From NCBI GenBank assembly GCA_013812505.1, contig JACCTH010000036.1:39957-103956 (forward strand): DNA of 64,000 nucleotides, in the 5' to 3' direction. This DNA is from Acidimicrobiia bacterium. Its GTDB lineage: Bacteria; Actinomycetota; Acidimicrobiia; Spongiisociales; ZC4RG35. The notes under the pieces are model-generated. The model was not told the DNA's origin, searched no databases, and saw nothing but the letters and a program-made list of their open reading frames with translations. The position numbers and the translations under genes are program-made. The first letter of the stretch is position 1. The number at the start of each line of letters is the position of its first letter. This document shows positions 12,037-40,148 of the stretch, in pieces.

Positions 12037-12054
12037 GGTCCCAACCACTCCACA

Positions 12055-12101: not shown

Positions 12102-12113
12102 CCTTTTGCTGCC

Positions 12114-12944: not shown

Positions 12945-12946
12945 CC

Positions 12947-14407: not shown

Positions 14408-14454
14408 AGACCGTGACGCTACTAGAGCGCCCAAACCCTGTTTCATTGCGTTCA

Positions 14455-15033: not shown

Positions 15034-15041
15034 TAAAAACG
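14989..15041. repeat. 53-nt palindromic element, family A copy 2
   Basis: cgttctcgcgaccaaatcggcacctggaaggtgccgatttggtgataaaaacg. 14-bp perfect core stem. Lies between convergent stops at 15033 and 15048. Confidence 0.85.
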
Positions 15042-15047
15042 ATGGTT

Positions 15048-17998: not shown

Positions 17999-18057
17999 CT
18001 CGGTAATGTACCAATCGACCGCCTGGAAAGTACGGGCGGCGACCAAGAGGAGAACGA

Positions 18058-19089
18058 ATGAAGAACCGCTTATTGCTTGGTTTGACGATTCTGAGCCTGT
18101 TCGTGGCGGCCTGCGGTGGCGGCACCGCCGCAACCACCGGTGGCGATACCCCCGGCACCACTGCCGCGGGAGACGACCCCGGAACAACCGCCGGTGATGC
18201 TGGGACCGTCACAACGATGGGCATCGACTCGAGCAAGCCGACGATCAACCTGGTGGTCAACGCTTGGACCGCCTCGGCGCTCAACGTCGAAATCGCCAAG
18301 CAGCTCATCGAAGGTCACCTCGGCTATCCGGTCGAGGCAGTCACGATCGACGAGAACGCGGCCATGTACACCGGTCTTGCCGATGGCACTCTCGACGCAG
18401 TCTTGGAGTTGTGGCCATCGGGTATCACCGAAGACGAGCAAACCTTCCTCGACGAGGGAACCGTCGTAAACATCGGCGAGCTCGGCGCAGTGGGCCAGAT
18501 CGGCTGGTTCGTACCCGACTATGTAATTGCGGAGCACCCCGAGCTGGCCACCTGGGAAGGGTTCCAGGATCCGGCCAACGCCGCGCTGTTCGCCACCGCC
18601 GAAACGGGCGACCAGGGACGTTTCCTCGGGACCGACCCCTCCTACTCACAGTACGACGAGCCGATCATCGCCAACTTGGAACTCCCCTTCGAAGTCGTGT
18701 ACTCCGGTTCGGAAGCTGCCACCGTCGCCGAGCTCGACCTCCGGGTTGCCGCCCAAGAACCGATCCTGATGTATTGGTGGACCCCGACCGCCGCCTTCGC
18801 CAAGTACAACCTGGTCCAAGTCGAGCTGCCGGCCTACTCCGATGAGTGCTACGCCGAGGTTTCGGCGGTCGACTGCGCCTACCCGGAGGACCGGCTCATC
18901 AAACTCGCCTCGGCCCAACTGGAGGAAAAGGCTCCGGACGTGTTCGAGTTCTTGAGCAATTTCACCCAGACCACCGAGGACCAGCTTTCGATGCTGCCCG
19001 CCGCCGAGATCGACGGTGAGGACCTCCCCGTCGTCGCCAAAGGCTGGATCGACGCCAACCAAGACATCTGGCAGGCCTGGCTCCCCTAA
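18058..19089 (+). CDS. glycine betaine ABC transporter substrate-binding lipoprotein (ProX/OpuAC-like)
   Basis: Signal peptide with lipobox LFVAAC-GGG and a Thr/Gly-rich linker. OpuAC-like body. Divergent from the ATPase-permease operon. RBS agagga before the ATG. Confidence 0.75.
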   Translation: MKNRLLLGLTILSLFVAACGGGTAATTGGDTPGTTAAGDDPGTTAGDAGTVTTMGIDSSKPTINLVVNAWTASALNVEIAKQLIEGHLGYPVEAVTIDENAAMYTGLADGTLDAVLELWPSGITEDEQTFLDEGTVVNIGELGAVGQIGWFVPDYVIAEHPELATWEGFQDPANAALFATAETGDQGRFLGTDPSYSQYDEPIIANLELPFEVVYSGSEAATVAELDLRVAAQEPILMYWWTPTAAFAKYNLVQVELPAYSDECYAEVSAVDCAYPEDRLIKLASAQLEEKAPDVFEFLSNFTQTTEDQLSMLPAAEIDGEDLPVVAKGWIDANQDIWQAWLP

Positions 19090-19180: not shown

Positions 19181-19328
19181 CGCGTAGAGTGTGATTAGCG
19201 CCGATTTGATTCGATCAGCTTGCGGGCGCTCAACAAATGCGGCTAAAGCGTCGGGATGGAAAAACCGCCCGGCCTCTGCTGCGGCGGTTTTCTGGTTGAA
19301 GGCCGCCTCACAACCAGGAAGGGATGAG

Positions 19329-20318
19329 ATGGCCAAAACAACAACATTCACCGAGCTCCTCAACACCGGCCGACCTCTCGTGGCCGATGGAGCGATGGGC
19401 ACCACGTTGTTCTCGCTCGGGCTCGAAGGTGGCGGCTGTCCAGAGCTGCTCAATGTCGAACAGCCCGATCTGGTGGAGAAAGTCCATCGCGGGTTTGTCG
19501 AAGCCGGTGCCGACATCATCCTCACCAATACTTTTGGCGGCAATCGCCGGCGCCTCGCCTTGCACCGGCTCGAAGACCGGGTCGCCGAGCTGAACATCGC
19601 CGCAGTTAACGTCGCCCGCCGGGCCGCCGATCTTGCCGATCGCCCTGTGGCGGTGGCCGGCAGCATCGGACCAACCGGTGATCTGTTCGAACCGCTCGGA
19701 CCCTTGTCTGCCGAAGAAGGAATTCAAGTCTTCACGGAGCAGGCCGCCGCGCTGGCCGAGGGGGGTGCAGACGTTCTATGGATCGAGACCATCTCCTCGT
19801 TTGAAGAGCTCGACGCTGCCTGCGGGGCCGCCAGAGCCATTGGCTTGCCCTTCACTGCCACTCTGAGTTTTGACACCGCCGGCCACACGATGATGGGGAT
19901 CAGCCCGATCGCGCTCGGTGAATGGTGGAATCGCAATCGGGACGTGGCGGGCGTCGGCGCCAATTGCGGCATTGGACCCGGCGACGCCGTCGCCACGGCT
20001 CTCGGCATCGCCAGCGTTGCACCGGACGCCACCACTATCACCAAGGCCAATTGCGGGATCCCGCTTTACAAGAGCGAAGGGGGGCTCACCTACCCGATCG
20101 GCCCCGAAGAGATGGTCGACTATGTCGAGCTCTCGCTTCGCTCCGGCACCCGCATCATTGGCGCTTGTTGTGGATCGACGCCCGACCACATCGAGGCCAT
20201 TCGCGAGGCCGTCGATACCTTCACCGACGGACCAACACCGACCTTCGAGGAAGTCCAGCTCCGTCTCGATGCCACCGCCGCATCTTCGAGTCCCCGACGC
20301 GAACGTCGTCGCCGCTAG
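19329..20318 (+). CDS. homocysteine S-methyltransferase-domain protein (BHMT-like; context suggests betaine-homocysteine methyltransferase)
   Basis: Start at ATG 19329 (MAKTTTFTELL). Motifs ADGAMGT, ILTNTFGGN, and the Zn-ligand pair GACCGSTPDHI. 329 aa, with no cobalamin-binding domain. Confidence 0.7.
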   Translation: MAKTTTFTELLNTGRPLVADGAMGTTLFSLGLEGGGCPELLNVEQPDLVEKVHRGFVEAGADIILTNTFGGNRRRLALHRLEDRVAELNIAAVNVARRAADLADRPVAVAGSIGPTGDLFEPLGPLSAEEGIQVFTEQAAALAEGGADVLWIETISSFEELDAACGAARAIGLPFTATLSFDTAGHTMMGISPIALGEWWNRNRDVAGVGANCGIGPGDAVATALGIASVAPDATTITKANCGIPLYKSEGGLTYPIGPEEMVDYVELSLRSGTRIIGACCGSTPDHIEAIREAVDTFTDGPTPTFEEVQLRLDATAASSSPRRERRRR

Positions 20319-20332
20319 GCGGCCAGAATAGG

Positions 20333-21274
20333 TTGGTGATCAAAACCTGGCTCACCGAGCGATTCAACCTGACCGTCCCATTGATCGCGGCGCCAATGGG
20401 CGGCACCGCCAATGGAAACTTCGCCGCCGAAGTTGCACGCAACGGGGCTCTTGGGATGATCGCAGTCGGAAGCCGAGCGACGCCGGACTGGGTTGAGCAA
20501 GAAGTTGCGAGCCGTCCACCCGGCACCGAGCGGTGGGGAATTGGCACTCTGGCTTGGGTGGTCGACCAACGGCCAGAACTCCTCGACGCAGCGCTTGCCG
20601 CCAAGCCACCGCTTCTTTCCATCAGCTACGGACCATATGCCCGTCACCTCGAGGCGATCCGAAACGCCGGATCGGTAGTCACGACTCAGGTGGGGACTCT
20701 CGCCGAAGCCCTCGACGCCGAACAGGCGGGCTTCGACTTTCTAGTCGTCCGCGGCGGCGAAGGCGGGGGTCACGGCCGCGATGTGATGGCCACCCTCCCC
20801 CTTCTTCAAGAGGTGCTCGAAGGGGTCGAGCTGCCCGTGGTTGCCGCCGGCGGCATCGCCAACCGACGAGGATTGGCCGCCGTAATAGCAGCTGGGGCCG
20901 TCGGCGGGTGGGTCGGCACCGCGTTCTTGGGTTGTGCGGAAACGGCATGGACGGACGAGGCGCGCGACCGAGTCATTTCCGCCGCCGATGGCGACACCAT
21001 CTACACCCGATCGTTTGACTCCGGCTTACAGCTCGCGTGGCCGCCGGAGTTTGGCGGACGGGCTTTGCAGAACACTTTCAGCCGCGAGTGGCACGAACGC
21101 GAGCCGGTAAGCATGGAAGCCAACGAGCAGATGGCGGCGGCTGTGACAGATCGCGACTATGAGATTGCGCCGCTGTGGGCAGGTCAAGGGGTTTCATTGC
21201 TCGAATCGAAAGGCACCGTCGCCGAGGTAGTAGAAGAGTTTGCGCGAGCCGAGGAGCTCTTACGTCGTTGGTGA
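20333..21274 (+). CDS. nitronate monooxygenase (NMO / 2-nitropropane dioxygenase) family flavoprotein
   Basis: PLIAAPMGG and VVRGGEGGGHG motifs. Start at TTG 20333 or GTG 20336. The long N-terminal part of track ORF 19922..21274 overlaps the previous gene and is rejected. Confidence 0.75.
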   Translation: MVIKTWLTERFNLTVPLIAAPMGGTANGNFAAEVARNGALGMIAVGSRATPDWVEQEVASRPPGTERWGIGTLAWVVDQRPELLDAALAAKPPLLSISYGPYARHLEAIRNAGSVVTTQVGTLAEALDAEQAGFDFLVVRGGEGGGHGRDVMATLPLLQEVLEGVELPVVAAGGIANRRGLAAVIAAGAVGGWVGTAFLGCAETAWTDEARDRVISAADGDTIYTRSFDSGLQLAWPPEFGGRALQNTFSREWHEREPVSMEANEQMAAAVTDRDYEIAPLWAGQGVSLLESKGTVAEVVEEFARAEELLRRW

Positions 21275-22109
21275 TGGAAGCCTCATCGTTTCGAACGGTC
21301 GATGGCGTTGAGCTCGCGATCTGGACGTTGCCTGGTGACGCCGTCCCCGAGTTCCTCTTGGTTCACGGCCTTGCCTCAAACGCCCGGCTCTGGGACGGCG
21401 TCGCCAGAGGTCTCCACGCCGAAGGTCACGGAGTCGTCTCCCTCGACCTGCGGGGCCATGGCGAGTCGGCCAAACCGTCGGACGGCTTCGATTTCGAAAA
21501 GATGACAGCCGACCTTGCCGGTCTCATCGCAACGAGAATGACTGCCCCCGTGTTGCGGCTGGACAGTCCTTTGGCGGCAACCTCGTCATCGAGCTGGCAG
21601 CGCGCTACCCGGATTTGGTGAGCGGAGTGGTCTGCGTCGACGGCGGATTTGTCGACCTCAAGAGCGCTTGGCCGGATTGGGATGAAGCCCTCCAAATGCT
21701 GACACCACCGTCTCTCGATGATGTGCGGGAGGAGGCACTCGCTGGTCGCGGGGCTGAGCGCTACCCAGGATGGCCGCCAGAAGGCGTCGCCGCCCAGCTC
21801 GCCAACCTCGAGGTTCTCTCAGATGGAAGAGTGAGACGACGGCTGAGTTTGGAGAACCACCTCAAAATTCTGCGAGCGATGTGGGAGCAAGCACCGGCCG
21901 AGGTGGCAACCAAAGTGAAGGTTCCCGTCCTGATCCTCGTGGCCGAGAACGGACCACCCCGACACCCAGCCCAGGTGGATCACTTTGCTGCCGGGCTCGC
22001 CAAGAGCAGAGTGATCCCTATGGCAGGGCATCACGACCTGCACGCTGAGCAGCCTGACAACGTGGTGGACGAGATCACCAATGCCCTTAACGACGGATTC
22101 TTGCAATGA
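21274..22109 (+). pseudogene. alpha/beta-hydrolase gene interrupted by one frameshift
   Basis: Frame 1 (ATG 21274, overlapping the NMO stop) gives ...FLLVHGLASNARLWD...LDLRGHGES. The nucleophile elbow AGQSFGGNLVIELAARYPDLVSGVV is only readable in frame 0, from about 21543. The junction is next to the C5 run at 21545..21549. Confidence 0.7.
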
Positions 22110-28047: not shown

Positions 28048-28278
28048 CTAGAGAACCTCGTCCGTCGTGGTGTCGCGGGTCACGGTGAACCAGCGGCGGC
28101 AGCCGTAGTCGTGGAACCAGCGCTCAACTGAGGGACCGAAGGGGTTGGTGCGCATGAATCCGCGGTCGAGGTCGCGGGCATCGGGGTCGGTAATCGACTC
28201 GGGGATGGTGGGGATCTCCCCGTAGCGAAACTCCTCCACGGTTCGACGGCCGCAATTGGGACAGGTCAGGTAGAGCAT
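28048..28278 (-). CDS. soxD: sarcosine oxidase subunit delta
   Basis: 76 aa. MLYLTCPNCGRRTVEEFRYGE... is the typical SoxD zinc-ribbon start. Overlaps the soxB stop. Confidence 0.85.
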   Translation of the reverse strand: MLYLTCPNCGRRTVEEFRYGEIPTIPESITDPDARDLDRGFMRTNPFGPSVERWFHDYGCRRWFTVTRDTTTDEVL

Positions 28279-29489
28279 TACTGGGTCCCGGCCGATCCGC
28301 GATCCGACAGGGGAAGGTCCCTGGCAAAGCGGTCGAGGCCGAACGGCGCGATGAGCTCGGGCATCTCGCCGGTGGCAATGAGTTGGGCCATCGCCTCACC
28401 TCCGGCAGGGATCGCTTTGAAGCCCCAGGTTCCCCAGCCGGTGGTGACGAGCAACCCTTCCCGACCCGTCGGTCCCATCACGGGTGAGTAGTCGGGAGTC
28501 ATGTCGCAGATCCCGGCCCATTGTCGAAGCACCCGAAGGTCGGCAAGAAACGGCAGCAAAGCCAAGGCTCGGCCCGCACACGACGAGAGGAAGCCGTAGC
28601 TCGATCGGTAGGAATAGGAAGGTTGGCGATCGATCTCAGCGCCGATCAGGATTTCGCCACGAGCGGTTTGGCTCGCGTAGAAGAGGAGCTCTGTAGAAGC
28701 GACGATCGCATCGAGACCGGGTTGGTAATGGTTGGTGACGAAGGCCTGCAAAGGGTGCGACCGAATCGGCAGACGCAACCCGGCCATCGACGCCACCATC
28801 GTCACCTGCCCGCCCAGAGCCATCATCACCACCCCGGCCGAAATGTCGCCGCGTTCGGTCTTGACTCCGGTGACCCGGTCTCCGCTCACCTTCAGGCCAG
28901 TGACAGTTGTGTTTTGGTGCACCTCGACCCCGTTCTGCATCGCCCCTTCGGCCAGCGCCCAGACCACCCGATCGTGCCGCGCGGTCGCGCCCCGCGGGTG
29001 ATACGAGGCGCCCATGACTGGGTATCTCCCGCCTCCCGCGAGGTCGATTTGCGGGCAGATCTCGTTGATCTCGTCCGGCCCGATGAAGACCGTCTCCGCG
29101 CCGTAGGCATGGTTGAGCGCGGCCCGGGCCCGTTCCGCCCGCAGCCCCATCTCGGTATGGGCAATCCACAACAGCCCCTTCTCCTTGTGCATGATCCAAC
29201 GACCCGTCTCCTCTTCGAGTCCTTGAAAGAGCTCGAGCGAGCGTTGGTAAAAGCGAATCGCTTCCGGCACGCCATAGTTCGCTCTGATGACCGTCGTGTT
29301 GCGACCCGAGTTCCCCGAGCCGATGTAGCCACGCTCGATTACCGCGACGTCTCGGATGCCATGGCGGGTGGCGAGGTAGTAAGCCGTGGCCAACCCATGT
29401 CCACCGCCACCCAGGATGACGACGTCGTACTCGGAACGAAGCCGGTCGGGCCAGGTCAATCGAACTCGACTCTCGACAAACTCGTTCAT
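28278..29489 (-). CDS. soxB: sarcosine oxidase subunit beta
   Basis: YDVVILGGGGHGLATAYYLA, NSGRNTTVIRANY, 403 aa. Confidence 0.9.
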   Translation of the reverse strand: MNEFVESRVRLTWPDRLRSEYDVVILGGGGHGLATAYYLATRHGIRDVAVIERGYIGSGNSGRNTTVIRANYGVPEAIRFYQRSLELFQGLEEETGRWIMHKEKGLLWIAHTEMGLRAERARAALNHAYGAETVFIGPDEINEICPQIDLAGGGRYPVMGASYHPRGATARHDRVVWALAEGAMQNGVEVHQNTTVTGLKVSGDRVTGVKTERGDISAGVVMMALGGQVTMVASMAGLRLPIRSHPLQAFVTNHYQPGLDAIVASTELLFYASQTARGEILIGAEIDRQPSYSYRSSYGFLSSCAGRALALLPFLADLRVLRQWAGICDMTPDYSPVMGPTGREGLLVTTGWGTWGFKAIPAGGEAMAQLIATGEMPELIAPFGLDRFARDLPLSDRGSAGTQ

Positions 29490-29848
29490 CTGAACCGTTC
29501 CTCGAACTCTGCGGCGTAGGCCGCGGCCACGATCACCAACGAACGATCACCGTCGATCCAAATCTTGGCCGGAAGCCCGGCCACCATTCCTTGGTTGAGC
29601 CCCGCGTGGATTTCGAAGGCGCAGAGCCTGACGAGCGCCTCTCGCAGCTGATCCTCGCCGAATCGCCAAGCCACCCAGCCCGAGTCCGGGACGACGATCG
29701 CGAAGGGGTCGTCGACCTGTACGTCACCTCCGATGACCAGGGCGTCGTCGAGCGCAAGCCGCATCAGCAACGTCCCCGGGCTCACACGGACGGCGTCGAG
29801 GGCGGCCGGTCGCGCTATGACCCGCGTGGCTTCGAGTGGTTCAAGCAC
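29486..29848 (-). CDS. soxG: probable sarcosine oxidase subunit gamma
   Basis: Small ORF wedged between soxA and soxB, with 4-nt and 8-nt overlaps. Weak family resemblance only. Start taken at GTG 29848. The track ORF extends to 29956, inside soxA. Confidence 0.5.
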   Translation of the reverse strand: MLEPLEATRVIARPAALDAVRVSPGTLLMRLALDDALVIGGDVQVDDPFAIVVPDSGWVAWRFGEDQLREALVRLCAFEIHAGLNQGMVAGLPAKIWIDGDRSLVIVAAAYAAEFEERFR

Positions 29849-31913
29849 GGGCGCGTGCTCCGTCGGGATCGTAAAAGGGATGCGAGGCGTGTCGAACCGG
29901 GCGACCGTCGCAGGAAATGCCCTCAGGTTCTGCTGGGTCGGAGCGCAGCCAGCCAAGCATCACCGTCTTGGCCAGCACCGGGCTGTATCGAGCCGAGGTG
30001 ACTTGACCGACGGGCGTTGCGACCTGCCAGAGGATCGCTCCTTCGATGGGTGCCGGTCCGTCCATCTCCCAGCCGAGGAGCCGTTTGTTGAGTGGCAACC
30101 GATTGGTACGCAACAGCGCCTGTTTGCCAACGAAGTCGGGTTTGCTCAGACGAGCTGCCCATTCCAGTCCTAGCCGGCGCGGGGTGGAGTCGTACTCGGA
30201 ATCCATGCCGACGATGAAGTGACCTTTCTCCAGTCGCAGGGTGAACAACGCATCGAGGCCGTGGGGATATGACCCGAGATCCGCGCCCGCCTCCTCCAGA
30301 CGACGCCAAAGCTCCACCGAATCGGAGAACGGGTGATGCAGCTCGAAGGAAACCTCACCGGTGAACGACAACCGCACGATGCGACACTCGACACCAAAGA
30401 CCGCTGCATCAACGTGCGCGAGATATGCGGGCGGTGAGTCGACACCCCCTCGTCGCAGCAATTCGCGAGCCAATGGTCCGGTCACGTTGATCGCGCCCAA
30501 CGACATCGTGCGATCGAGGATCCGAACGTCGAGATCGAAGGTCTCGGCCCAGTCGCGCACCCACATCTCGGCGAACGAGGCGCCACCCGAGGTGAAAGTG
30601 AGATAGAACCGGTGCTCGCTCAGCCGGCAAATTAACCCGTCATCGAGGACATATCCGCGCTCGTCAAGCAGGAGGGCGTAGCGCACCTGACCGTCCTTGA
30701 GATCTGCCACCCGGCACGGATAGAGCTTCTCCAATAGCGCCACCACATCCGGCCCTGAGATTTCCATCTTCCCGAGGGTGGACACGTCGCCCAACGAAAC
30801 CCTCTCACGCACCGACCAATACTCTGCTTCCGGATCCGGATAGCGCCAGGGTCGCCACCACGCGCCAAAGCGGTCCATGGTGGCGCCAAGGCGAAGGTGC
30901 TCATCGTGGAGCGCGGTTCGTCGAAAAGGAGGCAGGTCATAACCGGCGGCCACCTCACCTATCGTTGCCTGCCGGGTCAAGGGGCGGGCAGTGAATGGCG
31001 CCGGGGTCGAGACCCCTTTGGCCGCGAGGTATGAACGCAGATGAGGAAGGCAGACCCCGCCTTGACACGTACCGGTCCCGGCAAGAGTCGCCCTCTTGAG
31101 CAACTCCATCTCTCGAAATCCGCGATCCCACACCGCTTCGAGATCAGAAACGGTCACATCCGAGCAGGGGCAGACAACCCCCTCAGTGGGCGGCGGTGGG
31201 AGGGAGTCGGTTAGGGCAGCATCGCCAACCACCTCGACTTCCAGCCCCTGACCCATCCGAAGGAGACCCGATCGAGGATGAAGCCCGAGATCGACCACGA
31301 CCGTCGAGGCAGCGATCCGATCACCGGCGGCCGTGACGACTGCTTCCACTCGACCCGACCCCTCGAATCGCTGCGGCTGCTCGTCGATGGTGACGGCATC
31401 ACCCAAATCGATACCGGCGGCGCGGAGACTTTCAGCGGCGCGCTTGGTGAAGATCCCATCGAGCTCGGAACCAGGACAGATCGGTTGCTCCTCGGCGGCG
31501 CCGGTGGCGACGACCACCCGCGAGCACTGCACGCTCACCATCCCCGCCGGGGTCTTGGCGACGACGGTGGGACCGGCATAGAGGCCAATGGCCTCCTCTC
31601 CTCGATGCGCATCAAAGGAAATGACGGTGCCATCAGCGTCACGCGCCGCGGCCAGGCCGCTTTCTCCCTGGCCGACAACGACTACGTCGGCGAACGCGGT
31701 GCGAAGTTCGGTCTCGAGCGGTCGAGACTCGTCGGGCAGTCGGGGGGTGTCGGTTTGCCGTGCTACCTCAAGCGCGGGCCGAGCCGCGACTTGGCAGCTA
31801 CGCACATAGGCGACGCCATCGACCTCGACGACACAGTTGGGACAGTCGCCTCCGAGACAGATACAACCGCCGCCACGCGGATGGATCCCCTGTCGCAGGA
31901 GCGCCACCGCCAC
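29841..31913 (-). CDS. soxA: sarcosine oxidase subunit alpha (short form, 690 aa)
   Basis: Cys-rich N-terminus (GGGCICLGGDCPNCVVEVDG), a nucleotide-binding segment VVVVGQGESGL, and a C-terminal GcvT-like domain (FTLRLEKGH). About 250 aa shorter than the classical SoxA as I recall it. Confidence 0.8.
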   Translation of the reverse strand: MAVALLRQGIHPRGGGCICLGGDCPNCVVEVDGVAYVRSCQVAARPALEVARQTDTPRLPDESRPLETELRTAFADVVVVGQGESGLAAARDADGTVISFDAHRGEEAIGLYAGPTVVAKTPAGMVSVQCSRVVVATGAAEEQPICPGSELDGIFTKRAAESLRAAGIDLGDAVTIDEQPQRFEGSGRVEAVVTAAGDRIAASTVVVDLGLHPRSGLLRMGQGLEVEVVGDAALTDSLPPPPTEGVVCPCSDVTVSDLEAVWDRGFREMELLKRATLAGTGTCQGGVCLPHLRSYLAAKGVSTPAPFTARPLTRQATIGEVAAGYDLPPFRRTALHDEHLRLGATMDRFGAWWRPWRYPDPEAEYWSVRERVSLGDVSTLGKMEISGPDVVALLEKLYPCRVADLKDGQVRYALLLDERGYVLDDGLICRLSEHRFYLTFTSGGASFAEMWVRDWAETFDLDVRILDRTMSLGAINVTGPLARELLRRGGVDSPPAYLAHVDAAVFGVECRIVRLSFTGEVSFELHHPFSDSVELWRRLEEAGADLGSYPHGLDALFTLRLEKGHFIVGMDSEYDSTPRRLGLEWAARLSKPDFVGKQALLRTNRLPLNKRLLGWEMDGPAPIEGAILWQVATPVGQVTSARYSPVLAKTVMLGWLRSDPAEPEGISCDGRPVRHASHPFYDPDGARARA

Positions 31914-31960: not shown

Positions 31961-33040
31961 TCAGAACTCCACCACCGTCCGCGCCCCTTCGCCGTGTTGG
32001 AGCCGATCAAAGGCGTCGTTGATGCCTCCGAGATCGGTGCGATGCGAAATAGTTCGAGACAGGTCGAGCTCACCCTTGGCAACCAGCTCGGCCAACTCTG
32101 CAATCTCAGCGGCGGGATTGCCAGATCCGTAGAAGGAGCCGATCAAGCTTTTCTCGGAGGAGAAATCGATGGCCGAAATCTTGGCCGAGGTGCCGGCCGG
32201 TGCAATCCCGACGACGATGACGGCGCCGCCCGGAGCGGTGAGCCTCCAGGCATTTTCGATGGTCTCCGGCCGGCCCACGACTTCGAAAACACGGTCAAAC
32301 CCCGGAGTCACACTCTCCGGTGCCGAAAAGCTGGTGGCGCCCTGGGCGAGCGCCAATTCCGCTTTCTCGGGTACGGGATCGATAGCAACAATCTCGTCTG
32401 CCCCAGCCTTCGCCGCAGCGGCGATCACTTGGAGACCCACTCCTCCGCAACCGATCACCGCCACCCGATCGCCGGGCTGCACCCTTCCCGCGTTTCGCAC
32501 CGCACCGAAACCGGTGACCACCGCACAGCCCACCAACGCGGCTTCATCAAAAGCGAGGTTGGTTGGGATCTTTACGACTGAACGAGCAGAAACCACCGTC
32601 CTTTCCGCGAATGCACCGACGGCGAGAAATTGCTGAAGCGCGGTGCCGTCCGACCGCTGCATCCGGTGGGTGCCGTCGAGCATGGTTCCCGAAAAGGCGG
32701 CCTTCGAGCCCGGCTCACAAAGGTTGGATCGACCTCGGAGGCATTGCCGGCACTCGCCACACGACGGAAGAAAACAGAAGGAAATGCGGTCGCCGATGGC
32801 CAGCCCGTCAACTCCTTTTCCCAGCTTGGTCACCGTTCCGGAGCCTTCGTGGCCAAGGACTGTCGGGAACCGATGCAGCCCAAAGTGGCCAACGGCGAGG
32901 TGAAGGTCGGAGTGGCAAACCCCGGCGGCGGCCACCTCGACTTCGACCTCGCCTGGCTGCGGCGGAGCGAGCTCTACCTCTTCCTCGCGAGCGCGCTCAC
33001 CGGCACCGAGCCAAACCGCGGCTCTCATCCGACTCGCCAT
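31961..33040 (-). CDS. zinc-dependent alcohol dehydrogenase family oxidoreductase
   Basis: GHEGSGTV, structural-zinc Cys cluster CGECRQC, GCGGVG NAD fold. Confidence 0.8.
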   Translation of the reverse strand: MASRMRAAVWLGAGERAREEEVELAPPQPGEVEVEVAAAGVCHSDLHLAVGHFGLHRFPTVLGHEGSGTVTKLGKGVDGLAIGDRISFCFLPSCGECRQCLRGRSNLCEPGSKAAFSGTMLDGTHRMQRSDGTALQQFLAVGAFAERTVVSARSVVKIPTNLAFDEAALVGCAVVTGFGAVRNAGRVQPGDRVAVIGCGGVGLQVIAAAAKAGADEIVAIDPVPEKAELALAQGATSFSAPESVTPGFDRVFEVVGRPETIENAWRLTAPGGAVIVVGIAPAGTSAKISAIDFSSEKSLIGSFYGSGNPAAEIAELAELVAKGELDLSRTISHRTDLGGINDAFDRLQHGEGARTVVEF

Positions 33041-34125
33041 TTCTCGAGACCTTCGAAATCAGGTTCCATTCCGAGTCCGGCACCCGATGGGGCGGTGACA
33101 AAGCCGCTGTTCATTTCGAGCGGCTCAGAAAGCATGAAGTCTCTTCGGGCATATGTCCAGGCAGGGGGATCGTACGGGAACTCGAGGTAGGCGCCATTCG
33201 ACCAGGCCAGTGCCACGTGAAGGTTGGCGAGGAGACCGTAACCCGTCGACCACGTATGCGGCGACCATATGCGACCTTGCTCGCGCGCCCAACCGGCTAC
33301 GTCCCGGCACCCGTGCACTCCTCCTGCCAGAACAACATCGTTTTGGATGACATCTACGTGTTCGACCAACTGGCGGCTCGCGGAGAGGTCGCGCACCATC
33401 TCGCCCGCGGCGATCGGCAGCAGGTCGAACTCGCGCAAACCGCGATACCCGTCTAGGTCGGAGGTGGCGAGCGGCTCTTCCAGCCAAGAGACGTCGAGAT
33501 CGGCGAGGGCTCGGGCGCAGTCGGCCGCGATGCTCAGATCCCAAGCTGGAGTCGTATCCCCCGGCATGCGCCATCCTTGGTTGGCGTCGACCATCAGGTC
33601 GAAATCGGGACCTACCGCTTCCCGAGCCTTCTCGACCACGGGGAGGTCGGAGCGCCAATCCGCGGCATGAAACCTGATCTTGGCCGCGGTCACCCCCGCC
33701 TCCTTGCTGGCGATCAAGCGTTCCGCTCGCTCCTCGGCGCCGATTCGCTCGCCGGTCGACTGATAGACCTTGTAGGTGTCACTCTCGCCACCGAGCAGTT
33801 GCCACAGCGGTAGGTCGGCCGCCTTGGCGACAAGATCCCACACCGCGACCTCAACAGTCCAGTTGCGGCCTCCGTGAAAGTCAACGGAGGCGCAGATACT
33901 CCAAACCTTGTCGGTGTCGGTCGGGTCGACCCCGACGAGGAGACGCGCCAACAGGTCGAGATCCGGAACCTGGGCTCCCCCGCAAAATCCTCGGATTCCC
34001 TCGTCGGTCGTCACCACAACAATCGTTTCAGAAAATGCTCGCCGGGGTATGGGATCCCACGAAGCGCCAAACGGAGGTTCAAGGGGGACCCGGTATGAGC
34101 GCTCCTCCAATGAAGTGATCTTCAT
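33025..34125 (-). CDS. enolase-superfamily enzyme (mandelate racemase/muconate lactonizing enzyme family)
   Basis: MVDANQGW, WLEEP, and a GE...D metal-ligand pattern. 366 aa. Substrate unknown. Confidence 0.75.
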   Translation of the reverse strand: MKITSLEERSYRVPLEPPFGASWDPIPRRAFSETIVVVTTDEGIRGFCGGAQVPDLDLLARLLVGVDPTDTDKVWSICASVDFHGGRNWTVEVAVWDLVAKAADLPLWQLLGGESDTYKVYQSTGERIGAEERAERLIASKEAGVTAAKIRFHAADWRSDLPVVEKAREAVGPDFDLMVDANQGWRMPGDTTPAWDLSIAADCARALADLDVSWLEEPLATSDLDGYRGLREFDLLPIAAGEMVRDLSASRQLVEHVDVIQNDVVLAGGVHGCRDVAGWAREQGRIWSPHTWSTGYGLLANLHVALAWSNGAYLEFPYDPPAWTYARRDFMLSEPLEMNSGFVTAPSGAGLGMEPDFEGLEKWRVG

Positions 34126-34158: not shown

Positions 34159-34800
34159 TCAGTGGGCCAGCGCCGTTTCGGTTGGACGCAGCTCCCTGAC
34201 TGCCTGCCACACCCGAGTCTTACGACGGAAGTCCCAATACTTGGTGCGATCGATCTCGAGGTCGGCGCCTCCCGGAAGCCCACCTGGCAGGACCCCGTTG
34301 TGGATCCGCACCGTTCGGTAGAAGATCGGCGACAACTCGCGCGCGGCACGGGCATGGGATTCGCTCGACCGCCAGCGCTCGCGTACCTCAGGCGCATCGT
34401 GAAGGATGAGATTCGCCCAGTTCCCGTCAGGGAGCTCCACCGACGAATAGCTCAGAATTCCAAGATGCTGACGAAACTCGAGCACAATTTCCGTATTCGC
34501 CTCCTCGAGCGGAGCACCATCGAGGTGGAGATGCCGCTGCCCGAAAAATCCCACCACGCAAACGTACGACGAGTCTTTGAGAACCTCGGGGCGAGTCACG
34601 ATGATTCGATGCCGACGTCCATCGACGTCCCACTCCTGGGGAACAAACGCGATGAGGTCGGAAGCGATCAGCTTGGCCATCCCGTAACGCAATTCCTCGA
34701 GCATCGTTCTCAATACATCCAGGTCGTGCGCATAGAGAGCGATCGATGTGAACGGGCGTCTCGGAACCGATTCTGTGGGGGATAGGACAATCGGTTCCAT
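34159..34800 (-). CDS. hypothetical protein (213 aa)
   Basis: Long ORF whose composition looks coding. No family recognised. Divergent from the PhnD-like/MttB pair, with only 40 bp between them. Confidence 0.5.
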   Translation of the reverse strand: MEPIVLSPTESVPRRPFTSIALYAHDLDVLRTMLEELRYGMAKLIASDLIAFVPQEWDVDGRRHRIIVTRPEVLKDSSYVCVVGFFGQRHLHLDGAPLEEANTEIVLEFRQHLGILSYSSVELPDGNWANLILHDAPEVRERWRSSESHARAARELSPIFYRTVRIHNGVLPGGLPGGADLEIDRTKYWDFRRKTRVWQAVRELRPTETALAH

Positions 34801-34840
34801 AGGTGGCGAATCTACTAGGCGATACCCTGCGATCTAGACC

Positions 34841-35497
34841 ATGAAGTTGACCTTCTCCGCTCGCCTCTCGCCGCCTCAGAACGAGCTGTTTCGTGGCAAG
34901 CTTGAGGCAACCGGGGTCGATCACAACTGGGTCGAGGACGACGAGCCCGACGTCGTGTACCTATGTGGCCTGCCCGCTTCCTATCTGCTCGATCGTTACA
35001 CGCCACTCGCGGCTCCGCTTCTGTCCGCAGAGCGATATCAGGGCAGGCCTTGGTATTTCGTCGATGTGATCGGTCGCCGCGGTGAAACCGCCGCTCACCG
35101 TTGGGCTTTCAACGAGAAGGCGTCGTTCTCCGGCTGGCTCGCGGTACAGCATGGGCTTTTGCGCGACGGACCTTTTCCTGAGGACATCTCCTGGGTGGAA
35201 ACTGGTTCCCATCTCGATTCGATCGAAGCGGTGAGAGGCGGGCGAGCCGATCGAGCCGGCATCGACTCGATCATCCTCGACCTCGCGCCGCACTTGCTCG
35301 GCAGGCTCGAAGTCGTCGCCACTTGGGGACCATGGCCGGCACCGCCGGTGATGGCGTCGCGTCGCCTCGGGCCCGACGTCATGAGCCAGCTCCGAGCAAG
35401 TCTTTCCAGCAACGAAGGTGGCCAATGGCTGTTGCTCGAAGAGGATCACCTCGCGCCGATCGTTGCGCTCTCCCCTGGCGGAAGCCGGCCTTCGTGA
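34841..35497 (+). CDS. PhnD-like periplasmic-binding-protein-fold protein without a signal peptide
   Basis: 218 aa. The pattern ...VVYLCGLP...WAFNEKASFSGW...VETGSHLDSIEAVRGGRADRAGIDS resembles phosphonate-type binding proteins. No hydrophobic N-terminus. Its TGA overlaps the GTG of the next gene. Confidence 0.5.
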   Translation: MKLTFSARLSPPQNELFRGKLEATGVDHNWVEDDEPDVVYLCGLPASYLLDRYTPLAAPLLSAERYQGRPWYFVDVIGRRGETAAHRWAFNEKASFSGWLAVQHGLLRDGPFPEDISWVETGSHLDSIEAVRGGRADRAGIDSIILDLAPHLLGRLEVVATWGPWPAPPVMASRRLGPDVMSQLRASLSSNEGGQWLLLEEDHLAPIVALSPGGSRPS

Positions 35498-37002
35498 GTA
35501 GACCCGGTTCTACCCGAGCCGAGCGACGCGCCCGTGGCGGACTCCACCAGCTTCCCTGGCGCAATCTCACCAATCCCTACGCACCGATCAAGGTGATCAG
35601 CGAGGATCAAGTCGAAGCGATTCACCAGGCTTCGCTTCGCATTCTGGCCGAGATCGGAATGGACTTCCTTCATCCCGAAGGGGTCTCCCTCTTGGCGGAG
35701 ACCGGTTGCGCGATCGAGGATCAGCGGGTGCGATTCGACCCCGATTGGGTGGTCGAGATCGTTGGCAAGGCCCCTGCCCGATTCACGCTTCATTCGCGCA
35801 ACCCCGACCGCAACTTCTCAATGGGTGACAACTCCATTTCGTTTGCGACCGTCGCCTCGGCTCCCAACAGCTCAGACTTTGATGGTGGGCGGCGAACCGG
35901 CAATTTCGCCGACTTCACCAACTTCGTCCGGCTTGGACAGCACTTCAACATCATCGGTCTCTTCGGCGGCTATCCGGTCGAGCCGATCGATCTCAGCCCG
36001 GCCACCCGACACCTCGACTGTCTCGCTGCCTATGTGACTCTCTCCGACAAGGTCTTTCACGCCTACTCGCTGGGCCGCGGCCGTATCCTCGATGCCCTTG
36101 AGCTCGTTCGGATCGGACGTGGCGTCAGTCGGGAAACGCTCTCGGAGGAGCCGTCGCTCTACACGGTCATCAACACCTCGTCGCCACTCCGACTCGACGG
36201 ACCAATGATCGAAGGTCTGATCGAGATGGCGCGGATGGGCCAGGTGGTGGTGGCAACGCCGTTCACGCTTTCCGGAGCCATGGCCCCGGCCACCATCAGC
36301 GGTGCCCTCGTCCAACAAAATGCAGAAGCGTTGGCCACGATCGCATTGGTGCAGACGGTGCGCCCCGGCGCGCCGGTGATGTATGGCGGATTCACCTCCA
36401 ACGTCGACATGAAGTCGGGGGCGCCGGCGTTTGGCACGCCCGAGTACACGAAGGCAGCTTTGGCCGGCGGCCAGCTCGCCCGTCGTTATCACCTGCCCTA
36501 TCGATCATCCAACGCATGCGCAGCCAACGCTGTCGACTCGCAGGCTGCCTACGAAGCCGAGATGTCGACCTGGGGGGCGGTGATGGGCCACGCCAACCTG
36601 GTCATGCACGCCGCCGGGTGGATGGAGGGTGGCCTCGTCGCCTCCTTCGAGAAGTTCATGATCGACGTCGAGATTTGCCAGATGATGTCCGAGTTTCTGC
36701 AGCCGCTCGAGATCGACGATGGAGCGATCGACGCGATCGCCGGCGTCGGGCCCGGCGGCCACTTCTTTGGATCGCCTCATACTCTCGAACGCTACGAAAC
36801 CGCTTTCTATGCACCCTTGATCTCGGACTGGCGCAACTTCGAAACCTGGCAGCAAGCCGGCGCGCCCACCGCCGCCGACCACGCCCACCGTCGCTGGCAG
36901 GAAGCCCTGGCCGAATATGTCGAACCGGAATTCGATGACACCCTCCGCGCCGAGCTCGACGACTTCGTCGGCCGTCGCAAATCCGAAGGCGGTGTCGGCT
37001 AG
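35494..37002 (+). CDS. MttB-superfamily (trimethylamine methyltransferase-like) protein, non-pyrrolysine type
   Basis: Start at GTG 35494 (VSRPGSTRAERRARGG...). Family-typical N-terminus ..LSEDQVEAIHQASLRILAEIGMDF and length about 500 aa. No in-frame TAG. Confidence 0.75.
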   Translation: MSRPGSTRAERRARGGLHQLPWRNLTNPYAPIKVISEDQVEAIHQASLRILAEIGMDFLHPEGVSLLAETGCAIEDQRVRFDPDWVVEIVGKAPARFTLHSRNPDRNFSMGDNSISFATVASAPNSSDFDGGRRTGNFADFTNFVRLGQHFNIIGLFGGYPVEPIDLSPATRHLDCLAAYVTLSDKVFHAYSLGRGRILDALELVRIGRGVSRETLSEEPSLYTVINTSSPLRLDGPMIEGLIEMARMGQVVVATPFTLSGAMAPATISGALVQQNAEALATIALVQTVRPGAPVMYGGFTSNVDMKSGAPAFGTPEYTKAALAGGQLARRYHLPYRSSNACAANAVDSQAAYEAEMSTWGAVMGHANLVMHAAGWMEGGLVASFEKFMIDVEICQMMSEFLQPLEIDDGAIDAIAGVGPGGHFFGSPHTLERYETAFYAPLISDWRNFETWQQAGAPTAADHAHRRWQEALAEYVEPEFDDTLRAELDDFVGRRKSEGGVG

Positions 37003-37424
37003 GCGTCGAACTCGGCATGCGCCGTGCTATCGAAGACTCGAAGCGGCTCAAAGTATTGGCGGTAGAAACCGCGATCTCTCGTGAGCAGCCGATCAGCTTG
37101 AACCAGGGCGTGTGCTCCGATGAGAAAATCGGCCAGGACTCGGCTCCGTGCACCACCCTCTGAGCGGTAGCCAGCCCAGATTCCGGCCGCAGTCTCGGCC
37201 GATTTTCTGTCGAGCGGGCTAAACGAAACCTGAATCCTGGCCATCGTCTTTCGCCCTTCGTCAAGGTTCGTGAACCACGCCAGAGTCTCCGCCCAAACGA
37301 CATCACACGCCACAACCGCCCCTTCTCCTCGGCATCTCTGGAGGGCTTTCGCGGAGGCGCGCCCGAACTGAGGGTCTGCACCAAAGACATCCAGCAAGAC
37401 CCTGGTGTCGACCGCGGTGATCAC
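36999..37424 (-). CDS. vapC: PIN-domain toxin (VapC)
   Basis: GTG start (ITAVDTRVLLDVF). Conserved acidic positions D..E..D of PIN. Its stop overlaps the MttB stop in a shared CTAG. Confidence 0.75.
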   Translation of the reverse strand: MITAVDTRVLLDVFGADPQFGRASAKALQRCRGEGAVVACDVVWAETLAWFTNLDEGRKTMARIQVSFSPLDRKSAETAAGIWAGYRSEGGARSRVLADFLIGAHALVQADRLLTRDRGFYRQYFEPLRVFDSTAHAEFDA

Positions 37425-37612
37425 ATTTCGGCCGGACCGCGGAGTTGCCTGATCAACTCATCAGTGGGAGCCGGGAGACGAATGATCCCGAAGACGTCAT
37501 CCACCGGGTCCACCGCGCTGACCTTGGTCGCGACCAGCCTGCCCTCCTCTTCGGCGAAATCGAGTATCTCGCCTGGCAGAATTCCCAGGCTGTCCCGTAT
37601 CTGAGCCCATTC
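37421..37612 (-). pseudogene. vapB: 5'-truncated AbrB/SpoVT-type antitoxin (vapB remnant)
   Basis: The frame reading ..EWAQIRDSLGILPGEILDFAEEEGRLVATKV...LRGPAEM* ends in ATGTGA, overlapping the vapC GTG. Upstream in that frame, a TAG (plus cta 37613..37615) lies inside repeat B copy 2. No ATG/GTG/TTG precedes the AbrB-like core. Confidence 0.55.
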
Positions 37613-37701: not shown

Positions 37702-38847
37702 GTGAGCGTCGGTGAACTACTCGAGCAGATCGCTGAGGTCGGGCTCGATCCGGAAACTCGCGGCTACCACCGGTTCTCCTACTCCGGCGCCGACGTGCAG
37801 ATGCGCGATTGGTTCGTTCGACAGGCTCTCGCCCGCGGGTTCCGCACCGAGACCGACCGCAACGGCAACCTCTGGGCTACGCGAGGAGATGGTCCCTACC
37901 TTGTCACCGGGAGCCACCTCGACTCGGTGCCGAACGGTGGAGCCTACGACGGACCATTGGGTATCGCTACCGCGTTTGCCGCCTTAGACCTGGTCGACCA
38001 ACAACGCGACGTGGCGGTGGTCGCGTTTGCCGAAGAGGAAGGATCTCGTTTTGGCGTCGCCTGTCTCGGTTCCCGACTCGCCACCGGTGCGATCGATCCG
38101 GAGCAGGCCCGCCGATTCGAGGATCGCAACGGGGTGTCGCTCGAAGATACTCTGGGCGCGGTCGGGATCGATGCGGGAGAGCTAGGACCTGACCCCGAGC
38201 GCTTGGACCGGATCGAGTCCTTCATCGAGGTGCATATCGAGCAGGGCCGTGGCCTTGCGGACGTTGATTCGCCGCTGGCGGTGGCGGCTTCGATCTGGCC
38301 CCACGGCCGCTGGCGGCTCGATTTCAATGGTCGTCCCGATCATGCCGGGACCACGCGAATGGACGACCGGCAAGATCCGATGGTTGCATTCGCCGGCATG
38401 GTGCTCCGATTGACCGAGCAGGCCCAAGCCCTGGCCGCACGGGCAACTTTCGGCCGCGTTCATGTGACGCCGAACGCGACCAATGCCATCCCCTCGCGGG
38501 TGAGTGCCTGGCTCGACGCCCGCGCCGCCACCGATGAGGACCTCATCGTTCTGATCGATTCGGTTTCTGCCAGGAACGGCGTCGAAATGTCGGCCGAATC
38601 GCTGACCGCGGCCGTGACGTTCGATCCGAATCTCCGTGACCGAATCTCCGCACTCTTGGGCGGCCCCCCATTGCTGTCCACTGCCGCCGGGCACGACGCC
38701 GGGATCCTCTCCACTTATGGCATCCCCACGGCGATGATCTTTGTCCGCAACCCGACGGGGGTGTCCCACTCGCCCGACGAGTATGCGAGTCCCGAGGATT
38801 GCGACGCGGGAGTGGAAGCTCTCGCCAAGCTGCTCAACGAGTTGTGA
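37702..38847 (+). CDS. M20-family amidohydrolase (allantoate amidohydrolase / N-carbamoyl-L-amino-acid hydrolase type)
   Basis: GTG start. Motifs GSHLDSVPNGGAYDGPLG and EEEGSRFG. Confidence 0.75.
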   Translation: MSVGELLEQIAEVGLDPETRGYHRFSYSGADVQMRDWFVRQALARGFRTETDRNGNLWATRGDGPYLVTGSHLDSVPNGGAYDGPLGIATAFAALDLVDQQRDVAVVAFAEEEGSRFGVACLGSRLATGAIDPEQARRFEDRNGVSLEDTLGAVGIDAGELGPDPERLDRIESFIEVHIEQGRGLADVDSPLAVAASIWPHGRWRLDFNGRPDHAGTTRMDDRQDPMVAFAGMVLRLTEQAQALAARATFGRVHVTPNATNAIPSRVSAWLDARAATDEDLIVLIDSVSARNGVEMSAESLTAAVTFDPNLRDRISALLGGPPLLSTAAGHDAGILSTYGIPTAMIFVRNPTGVSHSPDEYASPEDCDAGVEALAKLLNEL

Positions 38848-40148
38848 GCCATTTCTGGTGTGAAGCTGCCTGGATCGGCGGCGCCATCAGCGAAAAAGTG
38901 CTGATCGAATGCGACGAGGCGGGGACCATCGCCGCGATCGAAAATATCGCGGTTTGTCCGCCATTCGCGACGGCCGTTCCCGGTTTGACTTTCCCCGGCT
39001 TCGCTAATACCCACTCGCACGCTTTTCATCGCGCCCTCCGGGGACGCGTGACTCAAGACTCATTTTGGAGATGGCGCGATGCCATGTACGAGTTAGCCGC
39101 CAGACTCGATCCCGAGAGTTACCTGCAACTCGCAACCGCCGTGTTCGCCGAGATGGCGCTCGCCGGGTTCACAGTCGTCGGCGAGTTCCACTACCTGCAT
39201 CATCAGGCCGGAGGTCGTCCGTACGACGACCCCAACGCCATGGGTAATGCCCTGACCGGGGCTGCGAAGGCCGCAGGCATAAGACTGACGTTGCTCGACA
39301 CCTGCTATCTCCAGGGCGGACTCGGAAAGGAGCTCTCGCCACCGCAACGACGATTCGCCGACGCCGACGTTGACGACTGGGCGAGACGCCGAGCCTTGCT
39401 CAAAGGGTACGCACGGGGGCAGATCGGAGCGGCGATCCACTCGGTCCGGGCAGTGCCTCGGGAGGCGATGTCCGAAATCGCGGCCGCGGGTCGAGGAGGC
39501 CCGCTCCACATCCATCTCTCCGAGCAACCGGCCGAGAATCAGCAGACTCTTGCAGCACATGGGATGAGCCCAACCGCGCTCTTGGCCAAAGAAGGGGTCT
39601 TGAGCGAAGACCTCACCGCGGTCCATGCCATCCATCTCGAGGCAGAGGACATCGCGCTGTTGTCCTCGAGTGGAGCAACAGTTTGCGCCTGTCCAACGAC
39701 CGAAGCCGACCTCGGCGATGGCATTGGGCCCTTCGCCGAGCTTCACCGCCAAAAGGTCTCCTTGACGATCGGGACCGACCAACACGTCTTCATCGACCCG
39801 TTCCTCGAGATCCAGCGGCTGGAGATGGATCAACGTCTGTTGACCAGGCAGCGGTCGGTGTTCAACGTCCGCGAGCAGATCGACGCCTTGACCCAGCATG
39901 GCTACCGGGCGCTCGGGTGGACGAACGGCGGCCTCCTCGAGGTCGGCGCTCTTTGCGACCTCACCTCGATGAAGAACGACTCGGTACGGACCGCGGGCGT
40001 TCCCTTAGCCGAGAAAGCGTCTGTGGCCTCGGCAGTCGACGTCGAAACGGTGGTCGTCGGCGGCCGGGTCGTCGTTGCCAGTGGTCAACACGTTTTGGGA
40101 GAGATCCCGGCGTTGCTCAGGGAGGCAATCGATCCGCTATGGGGATAG
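38844..40148 (+). CDS. hutF: formimidoylglutamate deiminase
   Basis: GTG 38844 overlaps the preceding TGA. Amidohydrolase-fold metal motif PGFANTHSHAFHRALRG. The length (434 aa) and body resemble HutF. Confidence 0.7.
   Translation: MSHFWCEAAWIGGAISEKVLIECDEAGTIAAIENIAVCPPFATAVPGLTFPGFANTHSHAFHRALRGRVTQDSFWRWRDAMYELAARLDPESYLQLATAVFAEMALAGFTVVGEFHYLHHQAGGRPYDDPNAMGNALTGAAKAAGIRLTLLDTCYLQGGLGKELSPPQRRFADADVDDWARRRALLKGYARGQIGAAIHSVRAVPREAMSEIAAAGRGGPLHIHLSEQPAENQQTLAAHGMSPTALLAKEGVLSEDLTAVHAIHLEAEDIALLSSSGATVCACPTTEADLGDGIGPFAELHRQKVSLTIGTDQHVFIDPFLEIQRLEMDQRLLTRQRSVFNVREQIDALTQHGYRALGWTNGGLLEVGALCDLTSMKNDSVRTAGVPLAEKASVASAVDVETVVVGGRVVVASGQHVLGEIPALLREAIDPLWG

Follow-up and report, generated by a model that had tools for sequence, protein, structure and literature searches.

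The described system closest to the locus considered here is MtgBCDE of aerobic bacteria (Ruegeria pomeroyi, Phaeobacter inhibens and Sinorhizobium meliloti; Mausz et al. 2025, PMC12478193). That study combined proteomics with knockouts to show that R. pomeroyi, an aerobe, demethylates glycine betaine with PF06253 proteins, the core corrinoid protein MtgC and the pterin methyltransferase MtgD; without mtgC or mtgD it no longer grows on glycine betaine. Its genes for the MtgB paralogs, MtgC, MtgD and MtgE are scattered over the genome. As many as seven PF06253 paralogs in one genome probably rely on a single MtgC, and the 'Bhmt' protein of Sinorhizobium has been reinterpreted as MtgE, the homocysteine module of the Mtg system; the supplements of that study include no genomes from Acidimicrobiia or Actinomycetota (PMC12478193). 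Here we analysed a 64,000-nucleotide stretch of DNA from a member of the Acidimicrobiia (contig JACCTH010000036.1, about 63% G+C; hereafter the window), in which the gene for a non-pyrrolysine MttB-family methyltransferase overlaps the gene for a PhnD-like binding protein without a signal peptide (Table 1). The nearest homologs of the encoded proteins belong to metagenome-assembled genomes named as Acidimicrobiia, and two JGI contigs (Ga0180121_10000010 and Ga0136635_10000023) are 97-99% identical to the window. A previous reading of the letters alone (the sequence-only reading) had proposed that the pair forms an undescribed, possibly corrinoid-independent or differently partnered, demethylation module. 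Our analysis leads us to favour, with moderate confidence, a different view of the locus, as one branch of a multi-step betaine N-demethylation pathway for which the corrinoid protein MtgC is supplied from elsewhere in the genome. The known aerobic MtgB-type system is probably the framework, and the cytoplasmic PhnD-like partner the undescribed part.

The window resembles the aerobic system in several respects: a PF06253 gene in a betaine, dimethylglycine and sarcosine catabolic neighbourhood, an MtgE module, a corrinoid core encoded apart from the methyltransferase, and more than one MttB paralog in each genome. It differs in belonging to another phylum, in the coupling of MttB to PhnD-like and DMGDH-like genes, and in that MtgC, MtgD and RamA were not found within its 64 kb. 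A further point of comparison is MtgB of D. hafniense (DSY3156), the glycine betaine:corrinoid methyltransferase of an anaerobe, encoded beside MtgC and MtgA. In MtgB, R312 and H348 grip the carboxylate of the substrate, while Y97 and F356 surround the trimethylammonium group; R312, unlike the aromatic pair, is kept in all characterised members of the family (Picking et al. 2026, PMC13080624). The same holds for MtpB, MtcB, MtyB and MthB of Eubacterium limosum, MttB paralogs with differing quaternary-amine substrates and one common corrinoid protein; these enzymes come from an anaerobic acetogen and are likened to the window enzyme by description, not by sequence. The window MttB is about 36% identical to D. 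hafniense MtgB over its full length, is also non-pyrrolysine, and has equivalents of Arg312 and His348, but lacks the Y97/F356 cage that MtgB has.

The product of 35494-37002 matched positions 6-500 of the 500 in the PF06253 profile (E = 1.6e-193), and its gene comprises 502 codons with no in-frame UAG, which makes it a non-pyrrolysine member of the family. The closest PDB sequences were those of D. hafniense MtgB (2QNE and 9YCE, E about 6e-95) and 4YYC, with the pyrrolysine-containing MttB 7XCL much more distant (E = 1e-39), in agreement with the identity proposed by the sequence-only reading. Residues Y97, R312, H348 and F356 of MtgB align with A121, R337, H372 and G380 of the window protein. 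A121 and G380 occur in every member of the clade to which this protein belongs, here called clade A; the MttBs encoded in mtgC operons, described below, retain Y97. Judged by these residues, the window enzyme bears the hallmark of an acidic quaternary-amine methyltransferase without the glycine betaine cage, and since the aromatic cage is replaced by A121 and G380, its substrate may not be glycine betaine. The window MttB is MtgB-like and a predicted quaternary-amine:corrinoid methyltransferase. More than 8000 homologs of the window MttB were retrieved, the best 120 at 65-99% identity; among the matches listed, clade-A members belong either to Acidimicrobiia or to Alphaproteobacteria of orders such as Kiloniellales and Rhodospirillales. 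In a plasmid collection, rhizobia and roseobacters encode homologs with 51-59% identity, the top match lying on a 4.6-Mb Shinella replicon. A further MttB clade, with 48-49% identity to the window protein, was observed in L004/L005 (1921-3524) and L177/L178 (486-6332; L numbers are our labels for the loci and contigs compared), where the gene adjoins an SBP_bac_5/Opp-type ABC transporter and is divergent from another DMGDH-like gene. With clade A and the clade of the mtgC operons, Acidimicrobiia therefore carry at least three MttB clades.

The GTG start codon of MttB (35494-35496) overlaps the TGA stop codon of the PhnD-like gene (35495-35497) in a four-nucleotide GTGA, and the linkage of the two genes, read previously from this one stretch, recurs in other genomes. 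A clade-A MttB gene lies downstream of the PhnD-like gene, on the same strand, in all five Acidimicrobiia lineages in which the PhnD-like subfamily was seen (the window with L097/L098; L003; L001/L002; L004/L005; L007). The junction is direct in two of the five. In the other three, an 815-residue dehydrogenase with DAO, FAO_M and GCV_T domains (DMGDH2) lies between the two genes, with start/stop overlaps. An open reading frame (ORF) truncated by the left end of the window (3-917) shares 77% identity with the in-between gene of L007 and 67% with those of L001 and L004, but only 39% with the window's other DMGDH-like gene. We take ORF 3-917 to be the ortholog of the in-between gene, so that the direct GTGA junction is secondary, left after DMGDH2 moved about 34 kb away. 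The direct coupling proposed previously is thus upheld as a conserved linkage, but not as a conserved junction. The DMGDH2 and MttB genes adjoin or overlap each other in L001, L004, L007, L008 and L177; they occur without the PhnD-like gene in L008 and L177/L178, and a clade-A MttB stands alone beside carnitine genes in L009. The conserved core is thus DMGDH2 and MttB, and the PhnD-like gene is a frequent upstream addition, seen in five of eight Acidimicrobiia lineages. The locus is best described as a distinct MttB clade coupled to a DMGDH-like dehydrogenase, often with a PhnD-like and a ferredoxin-like partner, and no publication describing the PhnD-like/MttB pairing was found in the literature searched.

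In L009 (2932-9380) the clade-A MttB, 71.5% identical to the window's, directly follows a carnitine-type catabolic cluster with genes for a BKACE protein, a 3-hydroxyacyl-CoA dehydrogenase with thioesterase, an acyl-CoA dehydrogenase, a CoA ligase and an enoyl-CoA hydratase; a gene for a 222-residue PF12974 protein lies about 10 kb upstream of this MttB. In the alphaproteobacterial locus L010 (531-7962), genes for FGase, a HutF-like protein and ornithine cyclodeaminase stand beside a clade-A MttB.

The PhnD-like protein (34841-35497) matched PF12974 over profile positions 47-214 of 242, with E = 2.4e-14 and a score of 53.7 bits (cut-off 27). A TAG codon in the same frame, six bases before the ATG (34835-34837), excludes a longer N-terminus, and the N-terminus itself, MKLTFSARLSPPQNE, has no hydrophobic segment; the protein therefore has no signal peptide and stays cytoplasmic. 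The export signal test was also negative for its homologs, consistent with the previous description of the protein as signal-less. The family profile matched ArrX best (6X6B, 6e-26), followed by AioX (9e-18) and then PtxB and PhnD, and an AlphaFold model (pLDDT 93) aligned in Foldseek with ArrX, PtxB and AioX at TM scores of 0.72-0.79 and a probability of 1.00. The two-lobe periplasmic-binding-protein fold is therefore shared with ArrX, AioX, PtxB and PhnD. Unlike them, however, the window protein is about 40 residues shorter, has neither signal peptide nor partner transporter nor kinase, and sits in a betaine demethylation cluster. A partner ABC transporter of the phnC/phnE type or a sensor kinase was not found beside the gene, either in the window or across L001-L007; L006 and L155 do encode an OpuA transporter, but one that comes with an OpuAC binding protein. 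A word-indexed search returned 33 relatives of 216-243 residues, almost all from Acidimicrobiia. Over these 33 homologs (25-92% identity), 17 columns are invariant, among them C42-G43-L44, Y72, S95/S97/G98 and G122/H124, and the invariant motifs include SxSG and GxH. The S95/S97/G98 and G122/H124 groups presumably correspond to the ligand-site motifs of PhnD, and the SxSG and TGSH-type motifs match those of the periplasmic relatives. Taken with the structure model, this pattern of conservation makes the protein look like a working ligand binder.

JGI metagenomes contributed 78 further members at 34-40% identity, which also lack signal peptides. In 26 of 30 distant PhnD-like loci from soil bacteria, the 30 being those with at least 3.3 kb of upstream sequence, a gene for a PF02574 homocysteine methyltransferase lies 1.95-2.23 kb upstream on the opposite strand. 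L155, the one such locus annotated in detail, has a DAO oxidase gene between the PF02574 and PhnD-like genes, with an OpuA-type betaine transporter alongside. Judged by gene content, the signal-less PhnD-like family accompanies two chemically different betaine demethylation modules, an association that fits a binder of the betaine or of its product (a carrier or a sensor) and not a stand-in for a corrinoid protein. The protein thus has the look of an accessory to betaine demethylation that binds its ligand in the cytoplasm and is so far undescribed. A separate arrangement was seen in L010 (Rhodovibrionaceae; 15370-17110), where an XRE-type HTH_3 gene runs into the beginning of a gene for a 284-residue PF12974 protein about 5 kb from the clade-A MttB, possibly a regulator and binding-protein pair.

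The 213-residue protein encoded divergently from the PhnD-like gene, 40 bp from its start, has 416 representative homologs at E <= 1e-3, but gave no match in Pfam, NCBIfam or the PDB sequences. Its structure model (pLDDT 93.8) appears to consist of two fused ferredoxin-like halves, possibly of the ABM/Dabb type. Fold matches were weak and covered half its length (E 4e-4 to 1e-2, TMq 0.35-0.40); they fell among cofactor-independent oxygenases and heme-degrading proteins, besides a hydroxynitrile lyase and an aldoxime dehydratase, and included SnoaB, SO0527 and HmoB. In its model, the protein looks like an enzyme or small-molecule binder rather than a DNA-binding regulator. Its gene adjoins the PhnD-like gene in L001, L002, L003, L097, L098 and L159, and is one gene away in L004/L005. 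L159 is a distant contig of 72% G+C with no MttB nearby, and the divergent pairing is thus seen in most PhnD-like loci as well as in a distant lineage. Promoter and terminator scans stayed at chance level, with no promoter-like match above chance in the 40-bp intergenic region, and comparison of the divergent intergenic regions by eye across loci revealed no common motif.

Several searches of the window were directed at corrinoid machinery. Pfam scans covering the larger ORFs between 1 and 50.5 kb, plus the small ones within a 2.7-kb gap, detected no B12-binding, pterin-binding or RACo/RamA domain. When four E. coli MetH modules were compared with the window by tblastn, the homocysteine module alone matched (19371-20216). 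A six-frame scan of the window for the D.H..G motif gave nothing credible, and an Rfam scan found no cobalamin riboswitch. A degraded corrinoid gene was considered for the gap at 20.3-23 kb and rejected, as the gap holds a nitronate monooxygenase gene and a frameshifted alpha/beta hydrolase gene. These results agree with the previous statement that the window encodes no corrinoid protein, activase or pterin methyltransferase.

A missing local corrinoid gene is no proof of independence, however, since dispersed MttB paralogs with a single unlinked MtgC are the published norm in aerobes, and the window is not free of links to such a system. Its PF02574 protein is far closer to the homocysteine domain of MetH (1Q7M, 8e-48) than to BHMT (1e-16), and with 379 bits it scores above the cut-off (338) of NF005718, the model built on the rhizobial protein. 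Among species-representative genomes, many Proteobacteria have its homologs clustered with genes for MttB, B12-binding and pterin-binding proteins. We therefore read the gene at 19188-20318 as the MtgE-type module of a corrinoid-dependent system. The sequence-only reading had described the rest of the region as aerobic betaine catabolism; the PF02574 gene fits that description but belongs to the corrinoid-dependent MtgE type.

Relatives of the window organism carry the remaining components. Two Acidimicrobiia contigs, L093 (4.16 Mb) and L094 (2.74 Mb), contain a full mtgC-DUF1638-mtgD-ramA-mttB-metF operon (B12-binding, DUF1638, a small ORF, Pterin_bind, RACo, MTTB and MTHFR domains, in that order), divergent from DMGDH-ETF genes. 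The window's DMGDH-like gene at 5613-8126 is 82.7% identical to the gene in L094 and 70.7% identical to that in L093, both of which abut mtgC. The L094 operon adjoins genes for BADH, 80% identical to the window's, and for an OpuA transporter, and the gene order of L094 matches window 5613-19089. The small ORF between the DUF1638 and pterin-binding genes encodes 103-117 residues and matches PF13769 (Virulence_fact; L093 11341-11694, L094 11307-11618). MtgC-like proteins gave more than 8000 matches, and the best 120, at 82-100% identity, include many named Acidimicrobiia or Actinomycetota. Relatives of the window MttB itself are linked to corrinoid or homocysteine modules: MttBs 48-50% identical to it lie directly beside B12-binding genes in the gammaproteobacterial loci L018 and L020-L023, and one 59.6% identical lies beside MtgE in L063, a metagenome-assembled genome of Hyphomicrobiales.

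On this evidence we propose the following pathway. MttB (35494-37002) would remove the first methyl group from an acidic quaternary amine (a betaine) and transfer it to the Co(I) of a corrinoid protein. MtgC, MtgD and the activators RamA and DUF1638 would be encoded outside the window and be common to several MttB paralogs, as in R. pomeroyi, and the MtgE module (19188-20318) would be part of the same shared system. The tertiary and secondary amine products would then be oxidised by DMGDH2 and by the products of the sarcosine-oxidase-like genes (28278-31913). The PhnD-like protein would most likely bind the betaine or its demethylated product and either present the ligand to the enzymes or report its presence, rather than replace the corrinoid protein; the direct GTGA coupling would be a remnant of an older PhnD-like/DMGDH2/MttB operon that DMGDH2 has left. 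As to the substrate, the neighbouring M20 'allantoate amidohydrolase'-type and HutF genes, like the genes beside the clade-A MttB of L010, could point to a histidine-derived betaine such as hercynine, which is pure speculation.

That a trans-acting MtgC serves the window MttB we consider reasonably probable, and several observations weigh against it. Neither the window as a whole nor the 10 kb around any Acidimicrobiia clade-A MttB in the contexts examined (window, L001, L003, L004/L005, L007, L008, L009, L097, L098 and L177) yielded MtgC, MtgD or RamA. Just upstream of the DMGDH-like gene, where L094 has its mtgC operon, the window has selC-selB-selA and an ORF of about 445-446 residues; the exact SelB protein is recorded solely on an 11-kb and a 4.5-kb contig, which share the same end. 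MttB from the mtgC operons falls in another clade, 36-38% identical to the window MttB, and no contig with the length of those of L001 (2.93 Mb) or L008 (closed, 3.48 Mb) appears among the best 120 of more than 8000 MtgC matches. NF005718 is moreover named betaine-homocysteine methyltransferase, and if that name is literally right, the PF02574 protein would not require MtgC. It is also possible, though in our view unlikely, that the mtgC operon has been lost and that clade-A MttB passes the methyl group to another acceptor, such as tetrahydrofolate held by the GCV_T domain of DMGDH2, with the PhnD-like and 213-residue proteins as replacement partners; we give slightly less credence still to the form of this idea in which the lineage lost mtgC and clade-A MttB, the PhnD-like protein and the ferredoxin-like protein together demethylate betaine without a classical corrinoid protein. 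Such a loss would account for the missing local corrinoid genes and for the altered mtgC slot, and both proposed partners are conserved. L094 is absent from the full list of PhnD-like proteins and from the best-listed MttB homologs, which hints at a complementary distribution, but this hint comes from two contigs and from cluster statistics that may be incomplete. Loss fits poorly, on the other hand, with the MtgE module kept in the window, with the linkage of close proteobacterial MttB relatives to mtgC or mtgE, and with the literature, in which no MttB-family member is known to act without a corrinoid (PMC13080624, PMC12478193). Nor is the PhnD-like gene suited to the part of a substitute, being missing from three of eight clade-A contexts (L008, L009 and L177) and accompanying Zn-type homocysteine methyltransferases that need no corrinoid substitute. 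The corrinoid independence that the sequence-only reading considered possible thus finds no support in the comparative evidence: the MtgE module, the mtgC operons of relatives, homologs beside mtgC or mtgE, the retained R337 and H372, and the published dispersal of Mtg genes all speak against it.

The part played by the PhnD-like protein can be questioned with MttB acting exactly as we propose. The protein might be a sensor like ArrX or AioX that signals to a regulator of betaine operons, an explanation we regard as possible but doubtful. Its best sequence and fold matches are indeed the sensor-type ArrX and AioX; in the soil loci its gene stands alone and divergent from the operon for homocysteine methyltransferase and DAO oxidase, a position typical of regulators, and in L010 a PF12974 gene overlaps an HTH_3 gene. 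The window protein, however, has no DNA-binding or kinase domain and none is encoded adjoining it, and the divergent 213-residue protein has an enzyme-like ferredoxin-like fold, not that of a regulator. With its translation coupled to that of DMGDH2 or MttB, the protein should be made in roughly the same amount as the enzyme, and sensors seldom are; likeness to ArrX/AioX and the stand-alone position speak for sensing, the coupling for a stoichiometric helper. A very improbable alternative is that the adjacency is inherited gene order without functional coupling and the PhnD-like protein a decaying transporter binding protein. It is shorter than canonical PhnD, with part of the profile uncovered (positions 47-214 of 242), and it is absent from several clade-A contexts. 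Decay is difficult to reconcile, however, with invariant columns that persist over 25-92% identity, with a confident and compact model, and with a start/stop overlap with the downstream gene that is kept at 46% identity. Signal peptides are missing, moreover, from the whole family, which speaks against a single decayed copy, and the family has a second, independent association with homocysteine methyltransferase and DAO oxidase genes. A ligand-binding accessory of a corrinoid-dependent pathway remains the reading we prefer.

Around this locus, every sequence statement of the previous gene-level description (MttB, PhnD-like and 213-residue genes, overlap and neighbours) was confirmed, including the adjoining enolase-superfamily and Zn-ADH genes (Table 1). 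The enolase-superfamily protein was considered as an HpbD-like proline/hydroxyproline betaine epimerase and rejected, its best matches being acid-sugar dehydratases (L-talarate/galactarate and galactonate). The M20/HutF pair also lies downstream of clade-A MttB in L001, L004, L007 and L177, and sarcosine-oxidase-like genes likewise flank the module in L001, L003 and L008. A PIN-domain toxin gene (36999-37457, minus strand) lies between MttB and the M20 amidohydrolase gene, and an RHH-PIN pair occupies the equivalent junction in L004/L005 (14953-15581); a toxin-antitoxin module thus appears to have been inserted repeatedly at the MttB/M20 junction. Elsewhere in the window, an alpha/beta hydrolase is split across two overlapping ORFs in different frames (21175-21621 and 21615-22109, plus strand), either a frameshifted pseudogene (21175-22109) or a sequencing error, with the nitronate monooxygenase gene just upstream (about 20318-21274). 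The ORF at 4226-5566 lies between selA and the DMGDH-like gene, and the same gene is present on contig L095.

Table 1. Features of the MttB locus and of other parts of the window.
Feature	Position	Strand	Basis or remark
MttB-superfamily methyltransferase, non-pyrrolysine, clade A, 502 residues	35494-37002	+	PF06253, full length
PhnD/PtxB/ArrX-fold protein without signal peptide, 218 residues	34841-35497	+	PF12974
Divergent intergenic region, 40 bp, 213-residue gene to PhnD-like gene	34801-34840		Sequence reading
Divergent protein without assigned family, 213 residues	34159-34800	-	No Pfam, NCBIfam or PDB sequence match
DMGDH2, 3' part (DAO/FAO_M/GCV_T N-methyl amine dehydrogenase, cut by window edge)	3-917	+	GCV_T and GCV_T_C domains
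tRNA-Sec (994-1084; Rfam 70.7 bits), selB (1095-2834), selA (2825-4162)	994-4162	-	Complete selenocysteine set
ORF of about 445-446 residues, hydrophobic lipoprotein-like N-terminus MMPILASLCAGLVLWACGG	4226-5566	+	No Pfam or NCBIfam match
DMGDH-like dehydrogenase	5613-8126	+	DAO/FAO_M/GCV_T domains
MtgE-type homocysteine-binding methyltransferase module, likely start 19326	19188-20318	+	PF02574
Sarcosine-oxidase-like set: SoxB-like (28278-29489), small ORF (29486-29956), SoxA-like (29841-31913)	28278-31913	-	Pfam
Zn-ADH	31961-33040	-	Pfam
Enolase-superfamily gene	33025-34125	-	Pfam
M20 amidohydrolase (37702-38847), then HutF-type deiminase (38799-40148)	37702-40148	+	NF006770 and NF006681, above cut-offs

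Betaine and methylamine turnover in oceans, soils and guts is widely traced through MttB-family genes, and an orphan MttB in an aerobe should not be read as corrinoid-independent. With B12 machinery encoded elsewhere in related genomes, the locus probably adds to the B12 demand of the abundant Acidimicrobiia. The signal-less PhnD-like protein is found beside MttB and a DMGDH-like dehydrogenase and beside a homocysteine methyltransferase and an oxidase, often paired with an uncharacterised ferredoxin-like protein. Genes of this kind are annotated as components of phosphonate transporters, and could thereby inflate estimates of phosphonate uptake from metagenomes. If the PhnD-like protein binds betaines in the cytoplasm, it would represent a new kind of accessory for osmolyte catabolism.

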